From: a virus
Lineage: Duplodnaviria > Caudoviricetes
Reading direction: 5' to 3' (one strand)
Virus record (IMG/VR): IMGVR_UViG_3300032290_000667
Coordinates: 1-48,518 of that record
DNA: 48,518 nt
In this document: piece by piece, positions 10,162-15,724 of the stretch
How the letters are laid out: each line of letters begins with the position of its first letter
Position numbering within the stretch: the stretch's first letter is position 1
Made by a program: the position numbers and the translations under genes
Notes under the pieces: model-generated
Told to the model about the DNA's origin: nothing
What the model saw: the letters and a program-made list of their open reading frames with translations, nothing else
Database searches by the model: none

Positions 10162-10386
10162 TTATTTTTCTATGTAATAAAATTGGTCGTTAAAAATAAA
10201 GCCCTCGAATAGCTCGCCATCCATCCCAAAGTTATGACGCTCTCGGTAGATGATTTCAGTCTCCTCGTATTGATCAAGTAGATTCACTACGATTTTGCTT
10301 TGACTGAGCCACATCAGAGATAGAGTCTCACCGCTTGGCAAGACTCTACTTTGGTCGGCAATGAAATTGCTTTTTGAATATTTCAT
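10162..10386 (-). CDS. hypothetical early protein
   Basis: 74 aa ORF. Confidence 0.6.
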   Translation of the reverse strand: MKYSKSNFIADQSRVLPSGETLSLMWLSQSKIVVNLLDQYEETEIIYRERHNFGMDGELFEGFIFNDQFYYIEK

Positions 10387-10676
10387 ATCTCTAAAGTTAC
10401 TTCGATTAGGCTATTGTCTCGGTAGTAGAATAGCACGGGTAATTGATGCTTTTTGCATACAAGTTCTACTGCATTCTGTCTCGCCTCCCATTTAATGTCG
10501 TTGTCCTCGTCTCGCAGTTTATCAATAAGATAAACATCCGCAGTCGTGGTCTTGTACTTTCGTTGGACTCCGTGGCTATCGGTTAGGGTTACATTTAGTG
10601 TGTAGACGCCGTCCTTGATTTGCACATAGCGTAAGGTGGCCTTGAGTGTCTCGTGGTTGTGTTGTGTTGTGTTCAT
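10383..10676 (-). CDS. hypothetical early protein
   Basis: MNTTQ start at 10676. Confidence 0.65.
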   Translation of the reverse strand: MNTTQHNHETLKATLRYVQIKDGVYTLNVTLTDSHGVQRKYKTTTADVYLIDKLRDEDNDIKWEARQNAVELVCKKHQLPVLFYYRDNSLIEVTLEI

Positions 10677-10677
10677 A

Positions 10678-10872
10678 TTATTCTGCAATTGATTCTATAA
10701 CTGATAAGTAGTAGTCGTACCACTGATTGAATAGGTCTTGAGCCTCCTCAGTGTAGAAGGTATCTCCGTTTGAGTGTAGTGAATAGATGTCAGACTCTTT
10801 GGTCATCTCATCTACCACTCGGTTGTTTGCTAGCTCTGAAGCTAATTCGATTTTGTTGATTGTAATATTCAT
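10678..10872 (-). CDS. hypothetical early protein
   Basis: 64 aa acidic ORF. Confidence 0.65.
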   Translation of the reverse strand: MNITINKIELASELANNRVVDEMTKESDIYSLHSNGDTFYTEEAQDLFNQWYDYYLSVIESIAE

Positions 10873-10891
10873 ATTGATTGTTGTTTGTTTA

Positions 10892-11179
10892 TTATTCAGC
10901 GCAGAAGGTTAAAGGTGGTATGCCTCGCAGTCTGCTTGGGGTTAATTCTAATAGGGCGCATATAACATTGGCTAAACGCTTATTGCCCTCAGTACCCTCT
11001 TGCAGTTGATTGGTGCCTATCATGGTCACCAAGGCTTGTGGTTCAATTCTTAATACCCTTTTGCAGAACTTTACATCTTGCCCAAGGTAAAAGGAATAGG
11101 TTTTACTTTTAGTGGTAATAGCCAGCGTCCAAAAGTGCGCTGAGCCATATTGCTCTGATATTTTAATCTCTGCTTTCAT
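10892..11179 (-). CDS. hypothetical early protein
   Basis: 95 aa ORF. Confidence 0.65.
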   Translation of the reverse strand: MKAEIKISEQYGSAHFWTLAITTKSKTYSFYLGQDVKFCKRVLRIEPQALVTMIGTNQLQEGTEGNKRLANVICALLELTPSRLRGIPPLTFCAE

Positions 11180-11325
11180 TGATTGTATTCTTTAATAAAG
11201 TATTGATATGCTTCTAGTTTAGTAAGTCTATTTTTGTATAGGCTATCTTGTGTCGTATAAAGATTGCGCCCCAATCTTATTATATTGTCGGAGCGCAACC
11301 AATCTTTAAAGTCTTGGCTATTCAT
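11176..11325 (-). CDS. small hypothetical protein (49 aa, not in ORF track)
   Basis: MNSQDFKDWLRSDNIIRLGRNLY...KEYNQ; overlaps both neighbours. Confidence 0.6.
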   Translation of the reverse strand: MNSQDFKDWLRSDNIIRLGRNLYTTQDSLYKNRLTKLEAYQYFIKEYNQ

Positions 11326-11740
11326 AGTGTACTGAGCCAAAGATTAATGTTTGTAATACCTCGTCAACATCGTTAGTGGTATAGTCGAATGACAATATCT
11401 TAACAATGTGGATAGGATTGCATATGTCAAAATTATTATTGAACTTATTGATGTCAAACTCAGCATAGGTTAAGCTATTCTCACCCTCTTTGAAGTCAAT
11501 AAACTTTAAAGTATACCCGTCATTGATCAATTGGGCTAATATCTCCTCGTAAGATGGGCGGTAAGATGTCTCTACGCCTTGCTCGTTTCTTATCTCGCTT
11601 AGGATGTGTTGCTTTGCTGATTGATAACTGCCGTTGCTGTGGACGACATGAAGCCCCCACATATTTACACACTCTTGTAAGGAGGCAAAGCAGATTTCCA
11701 ATAGTCGTTGTTTTTCTTGTGATGTGATTTGTAGTTTCAT
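11318..11740 (-). CDS. hypothetical early protein
   Basis: MKLQIT start; ends DEVLQTLIFGSVHYE. Confidence 0.65.
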   Translation of the reverse strand: MKLQITSQEKQRLLEICFASLQECVNMWGLHVVHSNGSYQSAKQHILSEIRNEQGVETSYRPSYEEILAQLINDGYTLKFIDFKEGENSLTYAEFDINKFNNNFDICNPIHIVKILSFDYTTNDVDEVLQTLIFGSVHYE

Positions 11741-11753
11741 TGTATTGATTGGT

Positions 11754-11975
11754 TTAAATTGATAGTGTGTCAAATCCTAGGTGCATTTCAATTACCTCAT
11801 TAGGATATGCTGAGGTAAGGGCGTTTACCAAATCGTAGTTGTCATATGTTCTATCATCTGACCTTACGATAGGGGTTAGTACGCTTTTGATTTGTTCGTC
11901 GCTTAGCGAAGTCAATAGATAAAAATTCTCTTCGCTGTACGCTGTCGTGTTGATTTCGATTACTCTTGTGTTCAT
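11754..11975 (-). CDS. hypothetical early protein
   Basis: 73 aa ORF. Confidence 0.65.
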   Translation of the reverse strand: MNTRVIEINTTAYSEENFYLLTSLSDEQIKSVLTPIVRSDDRTYDNYDLVNALTSAYPNEVIEMHLGFDTLSI

Positions 11976-11993
11976 ATTGATTAAATTTAAAGT

Positions 11994-12040
11994 TTGAAGG
12001 CGTGGGCGGAATCGAACCGCCCTTTATTCCAAAACGCCTT
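11994..12040 (-). ncRNA. armless tRNA-like element D
   Basis: AGGCGT-TTTGGAATAAA-GGGCGG-TTCGATT-CCGCCC-ACGCCT-T-CAA: 12 bp coaxial stem, canonical T-loop. Confidence 0.8.
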
Positions 12041-12046
12041 AGGATG

Positions 12047-12211
12047 TTAATTGGTTCTAAAGTATTCCGCTATTTCAATTAGTTCGTCAATTAATTGCTC
12101 TTCGCTCATCATGGCGTACTTTTTAGCGTCACTTACTTTAGTGATTTCATCAGATGCAAAGTCAAAGATTGCTTCGATTAATTTTTCTCGTGTGGTTTGT
12201 TTTGTGTTCAT
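12047..12211 (-). CDS. small hypothetical protein (54 aa, not in ORF track)
   Basis: MNTKQTTREKLIEAIFDFAS...EYFRTN with the shared leader. Confidence 0.65.
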   Translation of the reverse strand: MNTKQTTREKLIEAIFDFASDEITKVSDAKKYAMMSEEQLIDELIEIAEYFRTN

Positions 12212-12235
12212 GATATTTAATGTTTAAGTTGTTAA

Positions 12236-12781
12236 TTAATCCCTTTCAATTGTAGCCTCAATATTCCAATCGATAACCGCATCAATGTCAGTTAAGTTGT
12301 GCTGTTCTTTGAACTCGTTTAATATATCAAAGTATAAATTAGAATGCATTTGTGTAATGTCCAATGATATGCGCTTTGGCTCAGATTGGTCAATTTGCTC
12401 TCTTACCACCTCAGTTACAAAGTCGTAGGCACATCTGCGCATACGCTCTCTGTCATCGTCATCGCTGTAGGCGTACTCGATAAAGTTGTTTAACTCGTCT
12501 AGAAGGGCTTGCTCTGAGTCAGTAATCGCAACGCTGTGAGACGCTAATTGCTCATTGGTCAAGCTAATTTTTTCATTTAGGATATCCTTAGTATCGCTTT
12601 CGGGATTGCTCATGATTAATTGCCTTAACATTTGGTCGGTCATGCCAATTTGCTCTAGGACATACTCCATGGTTTCGCCATCTACATTAATACCTTTTAA
12701 TAAGGCAATTGCAGTGTTGACAGCTGTCGCGTTTACATCGCTTTGTGACATTAAGAATGTCTGATTTGTTTTTGTGTTCAT
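12236..12781 (-). CDS. hypothetical early protein
   Basis: MNTKT start at 12781; the upstream ATG lies inside the tRNA-like element. Confidence 0.7.
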   Translation of the reverse strand: MNTKTNQTFLMSQSDVNATAVNTAIALLKGINVDGETMEYVLEQIGMTDQMLRQLIMSNPESDTKDILNEKISLTNEQLASHSVAITDSEQALLDELNNFIEYAYSDDDDRERMRRCAYDFVTEVVREQIDQSEPKRISLDITQMHSNLYFDILNEFKEQHNLTDIDAVIDWNIEATIERD

Positions 12782-12799
12782 AATAATTGAATTTAAGTT

Positions 12800-12845
12800 T
12801 GGAAGGTATGTGGGGAGTCGAACCCCACCGAAGACCATCTACCTT
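12800..12845 (-). ncRNA. armless tRNA-like element C
   Basis: AGGTAG-ATGGTCTTCG-GTGGGG-TTCGACT-CCCCAC-ATACCT-T-CCA: 12 nt from T-loop to discriminator, encoded CCA. Confidence 0.8.
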
Positions 12846-12853
12846 AGTGTAGG

Positions 12854-13780
12854 CTATGCGCCTACGAAGTCATATACTTTTGATTTGCTCTGAGACGCTA
12901 ACCACTTCATGCACTCGTCATAGCCCATAAGATTGGTTTTGTAGCCACCACCTGCCATGATATACGATTGCTTTGCCTCATCACCCTTTGGTGAAGCGTA
13001 GTGATTAGTGTAACGCGTAACCGCGTTAAACAATGACCATATAGTCGCGCCATGGTCGTTCATTTCCTTGTTTAAGGCATTGCTAAACGCTTCCACTTGA
13101 TTACGCTTAACGGCTGACACCTCGGCTATCTTAGTGTCCTTTTGCACACCAAATATCTTGTTGATAATAGACTCGACCATGGAGCCATCTAATTTAGCAT
13201 CCGCCATGCGCTTGAAGTCTACCATCAATGCCTCGTCAAGTTCAATTGACCTTCTTAAGTCGTGCATGGCTTGTTTAACTCTATCCTCAGCGCTTGAAGT
13301 ATGTCTGAACTTGCTCAAATCCTTATGCGCTTTGTAGAATGTGTTTTGGCAGATAACAACCACATTGCTAGAGCCAAATGAGATAGACGATGAGCCATCG
13401 TGTGAGTTAAGCGCGGTAATGTTTCTTTTTACACCGCTGTTACCGATATACTCATCGGGTAACGCTACTTGCAAAAATACTTTGCGCCCACCATCTAATT
13501 GACCTCCGCTAGTGGTTACTTTGCCAATGCCCTCGGAGGCTTGTACGATTGTCTCGGCTAATTGGTGATTTTGAAAGGGTGTGTACTGATTACCTACACT
13601 GCCTAGCCATGACTGAGAGTCTGAGCGAAACATCCCGAAGGTCTCAGTGGTTTTGCCATCTGCGGTGACAAGTGGCTCCTTGGTTACTGACCAATTTAAG
13701 CCCGTTTTCTCTAGTACATCTAGTGTACGCTCGAATAGTGTGTTGTTGTTCATGTCGATTTGAAATTGATTTGTGTTCAT
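12854..13780 (-). CDS. DUF932 (TIGR03299-like) phage/plasmid protein
   Basis: GLNWSVTKEPL, LGSVGNQYTPFQN, GGRKVF, NSHDGS, VVVICQNT, RHT, TIWSLFNAVTRY motifs. Confidence 0.85.
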   Translation of the reverse strand: MNTNQFQIDMNNNTLFERTLDVLEKTGLNWSVTKEPLVTADGKTTETFGMFRSDSQSWLGSVGNQYTPFQNHQLAETIVQASEGIGKVTTSGGQLDGGRKVFLQVALPDEYIGNSGVKRNITALNSHDGSSSISFGSSNVVVICQNTFYKAHKDLSKFRHTSSAEDRVKQAMHDLRRSIELDEALMVDFKRMADAKLDGSMVESIINKIFGVQKDTKIAEVSAVKRNQVEAFSNALNKEMNDHGATIWSLFNAVTRYTNHYASPKGDEAKQSYIMAGGGYKTNLMGYDECMKWLASQSKSKVYDFVGA

Positions 13781-13801
13781 AATAATTAAATTGTTTAAGT
13801 T

Positions 13802-13853
13802 GATTAAGACGGGCAAACGCCCGTTTCGACTATTGAAGTCTCGTCAGTTAACC
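13802..13853 (-). ncRNA. type I hammerhead ribozyme
   Basis: GGTTAA-CTGACGA-GACT(TCAAT)AGTC-GAA-ACGGGC(GTTT)GCCCGT-C^TTAATC: intact core, three stems, GUC cleavage triplet. Confidence 0.93.
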
Positions 13854-14051
13854 TAGTTGAAACATTGCTATAGTATCGGGCAGTGTCTCGGTGTCATCGT
13901 TGTCAAATTGCTCATAGAAGTATGTAGCGTCTAGCCAATCAATGAAGTCTAGTTTAGATTGGCTGTCAAGGGCTTTGTACATGGCTATGGCGCTATCTTT
14001 GTCGCCATGCCCTAGGGTGTACATGATGTGTTCAAATGTGTCTAGTGTCAT
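13848..14051 (-). CDS. hypothetical early protein
   Basis: 67 aa ORF; its TAA forms part of hammerhead stem I. Confidence 0.65.
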   Translation of the reverse strand: MTLDTFEHIMYTLGHGDKDSAIAMYKALDSQSKLDFIDWLDATYFYEQFDNDDTETLPDTIAMFQLG

Positions 14052-14257
14052 GATATAAATAATTTGCTAATTTTGGTATCTAAGGCTTTTATGCTTTGGT
14101 ATTGCGCTTGGTCATCCAAAAGGGGATTCTCATTTAAGTCGGTGTACATCTCGCGCCATAGCGTGTTATAAATGTAACTTAATTGGTCAGAGTCTAGAGA
14201 CTCAATAAGCGCTACCCACTTGGCGCGTTGTTCGATGGTGTGTTGGTCGATTGTCAT
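14048..14257 (-). CDS. hypothetical early protein
   Basis: 69 aa ORF. Confidence 0.65.
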   Translation of the reverse strand: MTIDQHTIEQRAKWVALIESLDSDQLSYIYNTLWREMYTDLNENPLLDDQAQYQSIKALDTKISKLFIS

Positions 14258-14259
14258 GA

Positions 14260-14538
14260 TTAAAAGTATAAAATTGCTTCGTGTCTGCTATAAAATTGAA
14301 TGCTGTTTTCTAGTGTACCCTTAGAGCCTTTTTTAAGGTCATTACGGGACGGGATGCGATTGCCATAGTAGTCATAAAAGGGTATCGTTGGAAGCATACA
14401 AGCCCCACACTCTAGGAGTCTCATTGCCTCTCTACCCATAGAGCCTTCCATGTGCCATACTGAGCCATCATTGATTAGGCGTTGCATAGTGTCAAAGCCC
14501 GCCTCTTTTTGTCTTTTTTGAATTGATTTGTAGTTCAT
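14260..14538 (-). CDS. hypothetical early protein
   Basis: 92 aa ORF (MQRLINDGSVWHMEGSMGREAM). Confidence 0.7.
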   Translation of the reverse strand: MNYKSIQKRQKEAGFDTMQRLINDGSVWHMEGSMGREAMRLLECGACMLPTIPFYDYYGNRIPSRNDLKKGSKGTLENSIQFYSRHEAILYF

Positions 14539-14540
14539 AA

Positions 14541-14762
14541 TTAAAATTGATTTTTTACTATAGTGTTAAAATTGTCGCGTACATATTCGTATATCGCTTG
14601 GTTCTCCTCGGCGCTATAGCGAGACTCATCCCACATTAACTCATCTACATAGTTAACTCCGTGGTCATAACCTTTGAAGCCCCAACATTCGTAGCCACCA
14701 ATACCGCTATTCATGTAGATTGGTGTAAACTCGACATCGTCAAAAAATTCTTGTGTATACAT
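14541..14762 (-). CDS. hypothetical early protein
   Basis: 73 aa ORF (GIGGYECWG). Confidence 0.65.
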   Translation of the reverse strand: MYTQEFFDDVEFTPIYMNSGIGGYECWGFKGYDHGVNYVDELMWDESRYSAEENQAIYEYVRDNFNTIVKNQF

Positions 14763-14775
14763 AATAAAATAAAGT

Positions 14776-14821
14776 TAGAAGGCGTACGGGGAATCGAACC
14801 CCGTTACATCCAATACGCCTT
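14776..14821 (-). ncRNA. armless tRNA-like element B
   Basis: AGGCGTA-TTGGATGTAA-CGGGG-TTCGATT-CCCCG-TACGCCT-T-CTA: perfect 7 bp acceptor + 5 bp T-stem. Confidence 0.85.
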
Positions 14822-14827
14822 GGGTGA

Positions 14828-15046
14828 TTAATCGTTAAATCCTAGGTGCTTGTATACTTTGTCACATAAGCCCTCATAAATGCTAGGGGCAACTAAGCCG
14901 TTGTTCCATGCATCTGAGTCTTGCTTGAGGCTTTGTCTAGTCATGTCACTGATGGTCAATAGGCGCTCTCTAAGAATAGCCAATTCCATAAGGTCTAAGT
15001 CTTTTAATAAAGATTTGATTGCTTGGTCGTTTGTTTTTTGTTTCAT
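14828..15046 (-). CDS. hypothetical early protein (first gene of the leftward operon)
   Basis: 72 aa ORF flanked by tRNA-like elements. Confidence 0.7.
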   Translation of the reverse strand: MKQKTNDQAIKSLLKDLDLMELAILRERLLTISDMTRQSLKQDSDAWNNGLVAPSIYEGLCDKVYKHLGFND

Positions 15047-15066: not shown

Positions 15067-15134
15067 TGGTAGACATGAGAAGGAGTCGAACCCTCTAGCA
15101 ATCCCTTGTGGGCAATTGCTGACCATCCATGCTA
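15067..15134 (-). ncRNA. tRNA-like element A with an extra hairpin
   Basis: TAGCATG-GATGGTC-AGCAAT(TGCCCACAAGGG)ATTGCT-AGAGGG-TTCGACT-CCTTCT-CATGTCT-A-CCA. Confidence 0.75.
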
Positions 15135-15249: not shown

Positions 15250-15724
15250 TTTTACACCCTACTTGGAAGTCAAGACTATGCACAGCACAATCGCTGTCTT
15301 TTCTGTCCGCTCAACTTGTTCCCCTCGCTCGCTTCACAGCGTGCTTTTCGGTCGGCATGGCCACCCACTTATTCGCAACATATGTAAACATATGAGGCTT
15401 TCGATGGTACGGGTATGATTATGATAAGTAACCGCCCGTTAGTGTGTCAGAACTGAGGGCAAAACAAATGCATAAAAATCATATAAAAAAATATTTGTGA
15501 AAAATAATTTGTAACTAACTGAAAATCAAGCCCGTTTTTTTCATTTTATTGGGTTTGAAGCATTTTAAAATTGTAAGTTCTTAGTCTCCCAAGGGATTAA
15601 GGCCTAAAAACAGCCTAAAATTGAGGGTAAAAAAACACCCCAAAAATATAAAAAATAGCCGTTTTGAAAAAATCCCAACAAAACCCCTAGTAAATGTGTT
15701 CAAAAACTCCGCAAACCCTTGATT

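Follow-up and report, generated by a model that had tools for sequence, protein, structure and literature searches.

The window, by which we mean the whole 48,518-nucleotide stretch of DNA analyzed here, is a linear virus record that is about 70% complete and that encodes terminase, portal, virion and DnaB-like genes. Relatives of the window are found in freshwater runs from several studies. Its minus strand harbors, at 10162-15046, a mosaic run of small co-oriented genes that is likely one early operon, and this run is punctuated by a hammerhead ribozyme and four tRNA-like elements. The gene content and gene order of the run vary among close relatives (93-99%). The hammerhead, which is of type I, is found at 13802-13853 (minus strand), at the junction between a 67-aa ORF of no known family (13848-14051, minus) and a gene for a DUF932 protein (PF06067, E 5e-33; phrog_1221), which one source names as a member of the TIGR03299 family. 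The DUF932 gene occupies 12854-13780 (minus) and encodes 308 aa when read from the ATG at 13780; this start is favored over the listed TTG because the two closest DUF932 homologs are also 308 aa in length. No solved structure was found among the DUF932 relatives.

Read along the minus strand, the 5' strand of stem I lies at 13853-13848 and is followed by the core CUGACGA (13847-13841), by a stem II of 4 bp with a 5-nt loop (13840-13837/13831-13828), by the GAAA at 13827-13824 and then by a stem III of 6-7 bp with a 4-nt loop. The GUC ends at C13808, and the 3' strand of stem I takes up 13807-13802. Stem I consists of 6 bp, one of which is a G-U pair, and the two adenines that flank the ribozyme, A13854 and A13801, form part of a subfamily signature that is described below. 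All three stems are paired beside the core, with stems II and III closed by loops and stem I open, as in the type I topology, and the core carries every base expected from the criteria of PMC3088659, namely C3 U4 G5 A6 N7 G8 A9, G12 A13 A14 A15, U16 and H17. Among the 21 CUGANGA words in the window, only this one lies in a hammerhead-shaped site, and our own descriptor found no other hammerhead there. An equally good site was produced by none of 200 dinucleotide shuffles of the window, and a loose site by 3 of the 200. The initial annotation, which had reported a complete type I hammerhead with these stems, core and GUC, is therefore borne out.

Comparison with the Rfam hammerhead models, which had been suggested alongside that report, gave a divided answer. 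The model RF00163 (Hammerhead_1) aligns to the element in both topology and core, but the score of 19.3 bits falls below the cut-off of 34, which is a limit of that model and not of the ribozyme class. No Rfam hammerhead match was obtained at the cut-off in ten further loci, most of which carry such hammerheads. In folding calculations a 60-nt fragment around the window copy adopts the hammerhead. The predicted pairing of its stem I is 0.62 in minimal context, a value that only 8 of 107 family members equal or fall below. With longer contexts it drops to 0.15-0.48, close to the family medians of 0.29-0.44; stem I is not formed in the minimum-energy fold of 106 nt. Judged from sequence alone, the element is confirmed as a real hammerhead of a known kind, and a lone hammerhead, as first reported, is ordinary.

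It had also been proposed that stem I extends through an internal loop into a distal helix, UGUUU/AAACA. The letters are present in the window, but the helix is not supported. Its positions are 61% paired in 11 relatives, as against 91-100% for stems I-III, and across the family (n=106) the distal duplex has a mean of -2.52 kcal/mol compared with -2.42 +/- 0.19 kcal/mol for shuffled partners, with 60 of 200 shuffles as good. The distal pair of the window itself ranks 57th among the 106, and the helix is thus no better than chance. The cut is predicted between 13808 and 13807, and the associated claim that it would provide the DUF932 message with a 5'-OH end and a short leader holds up: the leader (13781-13807, minus) spans the 27 nt between the predicted cut and the ATG at 13780, is A/U-rich, carries no Shine-Dalgarno motif and is essentially unstructured, with a fold of -0.4 kcal/mol.

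The extent to which this hammerhead is kept beside DUF932 was assessed over 161 DUF932 locus ids, which were reduced to 114 distinct loci by the removal of duplicates on the basis of upstream sequence. The hammerhead lies directly upstream of DUF932 in 12 of the 114. The three closest relatives (93-99%) retain it with compensatory changes, and in two loci, L188 and L189, a compensatory replacement of A-U by G-C turns the TAA of the upstream gene into TAG, such that both the stop and the pair are kept. In 11 aligned DUF932-linked copies, stems I, II and III are 91, 100 and 91% paired, respectively, a score reached in none of 500 shuffles, and double-change cells number 25 compared with 9 in shuffles, a count that takes in the distal helix. 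The G-U found in stem I of the window is the commonest state of that position in the 11 relatives. The stems are kept by compensatory change, both in these 11 copies and in the family. One relative, L113, is without the hammerhead, and its flanking genes are intact and the loss is exact. Since only 12 of 114 loci carry the element, and since this loss is exact, the hammerhead is dispensable at the DUF932 junction. A locus search with a single protein returned two distant loci, neither of which has any of the elements.

Beyond DUF932, hammerheads of this sort are widespread in IMG/VR. A first scan used a pattern that fixed the 3' strand of stem I, and so forced a TAA; it recovered at least 105 loci and at least 150 distinct hammerheads, that of the window included, with at least nine in a single contig (L004/L005), where they separate one small gene from the next. 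An unbiased scan, in which the core pattern was applied without stem I to 2 of the 64 IMG/VR parts, returned 133 loci; around 5,200 IMG/VR stretches are estimated to match the core pattern. The 148 matches in this sample yielded 108 distinct type I folds. A start codon is located 18-42 nt past the cut in 72 of the 97 that have a downstream ORF, and an upstream stop falls within -13 to +3 of the core in 78 of 94.

A signature set of 59 members was defined by a stem I of at least 6 bp and a domain II of 13 nt, with the signature bases themselves left free by the pattern. These bases are A2.7 (59/59), the pair G2.6-C1.6 (56/59) and A1.7 (53/59), together with a U at the first position of loop II (59/59) and an A at the third (56/59), and pairs 2-5 of stem I covary among the members. 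The window copy carries the full signature. The conservation of A2.7, A1.7 and the loop II U suggests that stem I makes a compact tertiary contact with loop II, which would differ from the contact between U1.7 and an A of a GNRA loop described in PMC9217987. A second subtype of hammerhead (L267-L399) has a stem I of 5 bp and a longer domain II of 17-18 nt; a 5-bp stem I is observed in 23 of 107 copies, and the lengths of stems I and II seem to trade off.

The best matches to the ribozyme in cultured phages are in Flavobacterium and Cellulophaga phages. Cellulophaga phage phi19:3 has the same kind of hammerhead, in which the stop of gp051 abuts the core, as in the window, and the start of gp050 lies 34 nt past the cut; in Flavobacterium phage elemoA_7-9A, one such hammerhead precedes a start by 28 nt. 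The latter is overlain in GenBank by a 35-codon minus-strand "hypothetical protein" (L521:7968-8075), which is probably a false gene call. No hammerhead was found in the stretch of Polaribacter phage Danklef_1 that was examined.

The other punctuation of the run, which the initial annotation had overlooked, is tRNA-like. Three mini tRNA-like elements, referred to here as mini-tRNAs, lie on the minus strand at 14779-14821 (16 nt before the ATG at 14762), at 12803-12845 (just past the DUF932 stop, 21 nt before the ATG at 12781 and followed by CCA) and at 11997-12040 (21 nt before the ATG at 11975). They are 43-44 nt in length, are 62-79% alike, and comprise an acceptor-like stem, a linker of 10-12 nt that contains GG, a T stem of 6 bp and a T loop, with no anticodon arm; the element at 14779-14821 has an acceptor-like stem of 7 bp and, in tRNA numbering, a C at position 74. 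The listed ATG of ORF 12838-12236 falls within a mini-tRNA, and the ATG at 12781 is more likely to be the true start. A longer tRNA-like element at 15067-15133 (minus), before the ATG at 15046, has an extra hairpin between the 5' strand of the acceptor and the T arm and ends in ACCA; its fold support is weaker (z -0.78; 15.4 bits, for the T-arm part only). Further long elements with an insert were seen at L109:2615-2692, L189:1578-1655 and L190:4128-4198, and these tend to come first in their run, as in the window. Six perfect T-arm hairpins were found in the window, and four of them belong to the run at 10162-15046. All four are on the sense strand and follow a gene end or sit in a leader, with a start 16-24 nt downstream.

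For a comparison of pairing, 30 mini-tRNAs were chosen by hand from 37 candidates plus the copies of the window and of L190. As they were chosen for pairing, the figure of 92% paired cells is partly circular; double changes in this pairing-selected set number 119, compared with 32 in shuffles. Among the features that were not selected for, GG is present in the linker of 35 of 36 and C at position 74 in 33 of 36, which may be set beside the 63 of 75 tRNAs found by ARAGORN that have C74. At the other 3' positions, C75 is found in 3 of 36 and A76 in 32 of 36, position 73 is usually paired and the CCA is mostly incomplete. C74 is weaker in a broader IMG/VR set (29/55). A pattern scan that covered 1 of the 64 IMG/VR parts gave 129 matches, of which 47 lie inside tRNA or tmRNA genes and 34 are compact mini-elements, and a rough extrapolation would put the total at one to two thousand in IMG/VR, redundancy included. 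Eight matches to the pattern, outside the filter for compact elements, recur with a period of 125 nt at L473:1501-2398. A search with model R1 gave 16 matches in 9 of 80 hammerhead loci, a number that includes several duplicates as well as some members of the training set of the model, and found no mini-tRNA in three cultured-phage stretches.

The mini-tRNAs are not tRNA genes, in that they form no cloverleaf with an anticodon arm, and Rfam at its cut-offs returns a single tRNA in the window, at 2501-2573. They also score below the cut-offs for tmRNA (12.8 versus 47 bits) and mascRNA (23.4 versus 42.5 bits). What they do display is the shape of an RNase P substrate, with an acceptor stem and T stem stacked coaxially over about 12 bp, a T-loop cap and C74, and RNase P cleaves model substrates that consist of an acceptor stem and a T stem-loop (PMC11143913). 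The mini-tRNAs are probably processed by the RNase P of the host, with a cut where the acceptor stem begins on its 5' side. They may instead be cut by RNase Z, or remain uncut as a stabilizing or decoy fold.

The promoter word TANNTTTG occurs 83 times in the window compared with 61 +/- 7 times in shuffles. On the minus strand it is found at 15641 and does not recur until 13472, within the DUF932 gene, so that the part of the run that precedes the ribozyme contains no copy. Scans of the window for sigma-70 promoters and terminators gave results at chance level. A single transcript would appear to pass through 10162-15046. We infer a Bacteroidota host because the leaders are A-rich and without Shine-Dalgarno motifs, because the promoter word is in excess and because, among cultured phages, those of Flavobacterium and Cellulophaga match the ribozyme best. 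In Flavobacterium, initiation regions are A-rich, have no Shine-Dalgarno motif and depend on unpaired sequence (PMC6847099).

Two other parts of the region merit description. Around 400 nt without a sound ORF (15470-15067, minus) precede the first small gene and end in the long tRNA-like element with its ACCA; this region is 77% alike over 505 nt in L188 and is represented by patches only in L189. It may be a structured leader or a small RNA whose 3' end is marked by the tRNA-like element. At 11260-11300 (minus) there is a strong hairpin of 13-14 bp (z -4.8; equaled in 0 of 200 shuffles), positioned just past the stop of ORF 11740-11318 and overlapping the small ORF 11340-11176, which could represent a further processing or stabilizing signal.

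The two kinds of element replace one another at matching positions. The slot past the DUF932 stop holds a mini-tRNA in the window, L113, L117 and L118, and a hammerhead in L114, L198 and L146; L114 (hammerhead) and L117 (mini-tRNA) share homologous downstream genes, and the replaced segment has sharp edges in this pair. Over the 114 distinct loci, the slot after DUF932 contains a mini-tRNA in nine and a hammerhead in three. The slot before DUF932, which contains the 12 hammerheads already mentioned, has one mini-tRNA, in L190, where it stands directly before DUF932. Both kinds of element are present in 9 of the 114 loci. In L146 (3958-7261), four hammerheads and three Rfam pistol ribozymes occupy slots of the DUF932 gene run. 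A comparison of L113:4655-4670 with L198:3997-4052 reveals a hammerhead lost or gained exactly between two TTAA copies of stem I, with a short palindrome left. In run X7, four contigs cease to follow the window at 13854, which is where the ribozyme has its 5' edge. A joint from 13787 to 11993 in runs X7 and X10 resembled a mini-tRNA that had taken the slot of the hammerhead, but was set aside as a swap, as loose ends at 13767-13774 in X10 show that another gene follows. The case for direct swapping rests on one clade (L113, L114, L117, L118 and L198), on L190 and on L146.

The reading that we favor, and consider reasonably probable, is that the hammerhead likely cuts a long early transcript at a point 27 nt ahead of the start of DUF932, and that it is likely one of a set of interchangeable message-cutting joints, the other common form of which is a tRNA look-alike of 42-44 nt that is predicted to be cut by host RNase P. 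It is also the simplest reading. One transcript would run through the region, and the ribozyme would cleave as that transcript is made, so that the upstream piece ends, at its 3' side, in the ribozyme hairpins and a cyclic phosphate. The downstream DUF932 piece would acquire a 5'-OH and an open, A-rich leader suited to initiation on unpaired, A-rich sequence. The mini-tRNAs, cut at their 5' edge, would instead place a paired 5' end on the downstream piece. Either cut would provide each downstream gene with a standard, protected 5' end, whatever gene recombination, which is frequent in this region, had placed upstream. Against this reading, a 5' cut at a mini-tRNA would differ in polarity from that of the hammerhead, the predicted stem I of the window copy is weak, the element is optional and the swap is found mainly in one clade. 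Covariation, anatomy, the matching slots and the three states (hammerhead, mini-tRNA and empty) at orthologous junctions in relatives are what the DNA itself displays, and the steps of cleavage are what we infer.

The position of the stop codon invites a different account. The TAA of the 67-aa ORF forms the last three bases of the 5' strand of stem I, where it makes up pairs 2.1-2.3. The initial annotation had placed this stop within stem I and proposed that a terminating ribosome could modulate folding. Expanded into a translation-coupled switch, the proposal would have a ribosome that ends on the stem I stop either hold the ribozyme open or release it, such that cleavage and DUF932 expression report on upstream translation. 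This we regard as unlikely. The TAA to TAG change in L188 and L189, which preserves stop and pair together, lends it some weak support, and the weak stem I of the window copy competes with the upstream coding sequence. Stops lie no more than 13 nt from the core in 78 of 94 unbiased ribozymes, near enough for a terminating ribosome over stem I, since the footprint of such a ribosome would reach stem I from these stops. The exact fusion, however, is uncommon. In the same 94 ribozymes, all with an upstream ORF of at least 40 codons, the stop is at -1 in 7, at -3 in 1, at -5 to -13 in 47 and is provided by the UGA of the core in 23. A stop triplet occupies -3 to -1 in 30 unbiased ribozymes and is the real stop of the gene in only 7 of these. 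Stop fusion was accordingly rejected as a rule of the family, the 59 of 123 at -1 in the first scan having been forced by its pattern. Moreover, mini-tRNAs are abutted or overlapped by stops just as closely, and the upstream partner changes freely among relatives, a poor fit to a dedicated sensor. The rule of layout is that gene end, ribozyme, short leader and gene start are tightly packed, with stop fusion one solution among several. The stop within stem I is read here as tight packing, and modulation by the ribosome as at most incidental.

A second alternative places the role of these elements in the DNA, as repeated hairpin joints that help gene cassettes to be exchanged, in the manner of integron attC sites or of the repeated promoter stem-loops of phages, with RNA cutting incidental. 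The variation in gene order among relatives that are 93-99% alike would fit such a role, as would the divergence of contigs at the ribozyme edge and in leaders, and the likeness of 62-79% between the mini-tRNA copies of the window. What is kept, though, is the catalytic core, the tertiary-type signature, the T loop, a GG like that of a D loop and C74. Each of these lies on the sense strand, whereas the sequences of the stems covary freely. Conservation of this sort therefore points to selection on RNA function rather than on DNA homology, and we consider the DNA-level role quite improbable.

The hammerhead could alternatively be a small mobile or neutral passenger that inserts between genes at sites of the TTAA type, in which case the pair of TTAA copies in stem I would represent a duplicated target. 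The clean empty and filled pair formed by L113 and L198, bounded by the two TTAA copies, has this appearance, and presence is patchy (12 of 114 DUF932 loci). Yet stem I varies widely in the unbiased set and TTAA is absent from most copies, the outer bases of the stem I signature are still present at the empty site, as would be expected had a filled ancestor undergone deletion, and both position and strand relative to the genes are strictly kept; the passenger is thus very unlikely. Hardly any likelihood attaches to the idea that the window copy has decayed or misfolds and so seldom cleaves, for although its predicted stem I pairing is low, one pair in that stem is G-U and 4 of 18 consensus-matching hammerheads that were tested proved inactive (PMC3088659), the core and signature are intact, the closest relatives have compensatory changes, G-U is the commonest state in the 11 relatives and the 60-nt fragment folds as a hammerhead.

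The reading as exchangeable message-cutting joints can be carried further, to a proposal that we advance tentatively and to which we give a little less than an even chance. The ribozyme and an uncatalogued, armless tRNA mimic of 42-44 nt would be alleles of one junction, a plug-and-play form of RNA punctuation and a phage version of tRNA punctuation that would be present in about a thousand or more viral contigs, and shuffled early genes would obtain a standard protected 5' end either from their own ribozyme or from host RNase P. Natural junctions that occur in three states between the same genes are ready-made controls, and suggest that it is the cut that matters and not the catalyst. Few natural RNase P signals used within messages would be as small as the mini-tRNA, and neither RNA family reaches the Rfam cut-offs. 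The cultured phages phi19:3 and elemoA_7-9A, with the same kind of hammerhead, make the system testable.

Several known systems resemble parts of this arrangement. Clustered hammerheads flank individual prophage genes or small groups of them (Perreault et al. 2011; PMC3088659); they cleave in vitro, during transcription and in E. coli, and the processing of long phage transcripts into gene-length mRNAs was proposed as their role. They share the core consensus and the intergenic position in phage operons with the elements described here, and HHphage lies 13 nt before a start codon. The text of that paper, as far as it was covered here, describes no stop codon in stem I, no A2.7/G2.6-C1.6/A1.7/loop-II-U signature and no exchange with a tRNA-like element, although the alignments of its Dataset S1 and its Fig. 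S5 may hold members of the subfamily. The purpose of such hammerheads was still called undefined in a 2019 review (PMC6765202). The type I hammerheads of fungal RNA viruses (PMC13725137) occupy the same kind of short intergenic gap and have cut sites that precede a start codon by anything from a few bases to tens of them, but belong to eukaryotic RNA viruses with cap-independent initiation and are reported without loop-loop contacts. The mini-tRNAs, for their part, share a stacked acceptor-like stem and T arm, a T loop, a GG linker, C74 and the lack of an anticodon arm with RNase P model and non-tRNA substrates (PMC11143913), the tRNA-like domain of tmRNA and mascRNA. They differ from these in being repeated between the protein genes of a phage operon, in their 6-bp T stem and in that their cleavage is only predicted.

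The RNase III sites of the T7 early operon, RiboJ-type hammerhead insulators and the theta ribozymes found at phage tRNAs likewise cut a long message, whether phage or synthetic, so that genes receive standard 5' ends, each with one kind of signal. In the T7, RiboJ and theta systems, a ribozyme and a tRNA mimic are not known to us to replace one another as alleles. Our literature search found neither the mini-tRNA linker nor the swap nor the signature described, although the sequences may appear in the supplements of Perreault 2011 or in those of the motif catalogues of Weinberg 2015 and 2017 and Fremin 2023. Hammerheads between phage genes are already published, and it is their exchange with an uncatalogued tRNA mimic that is the new part.
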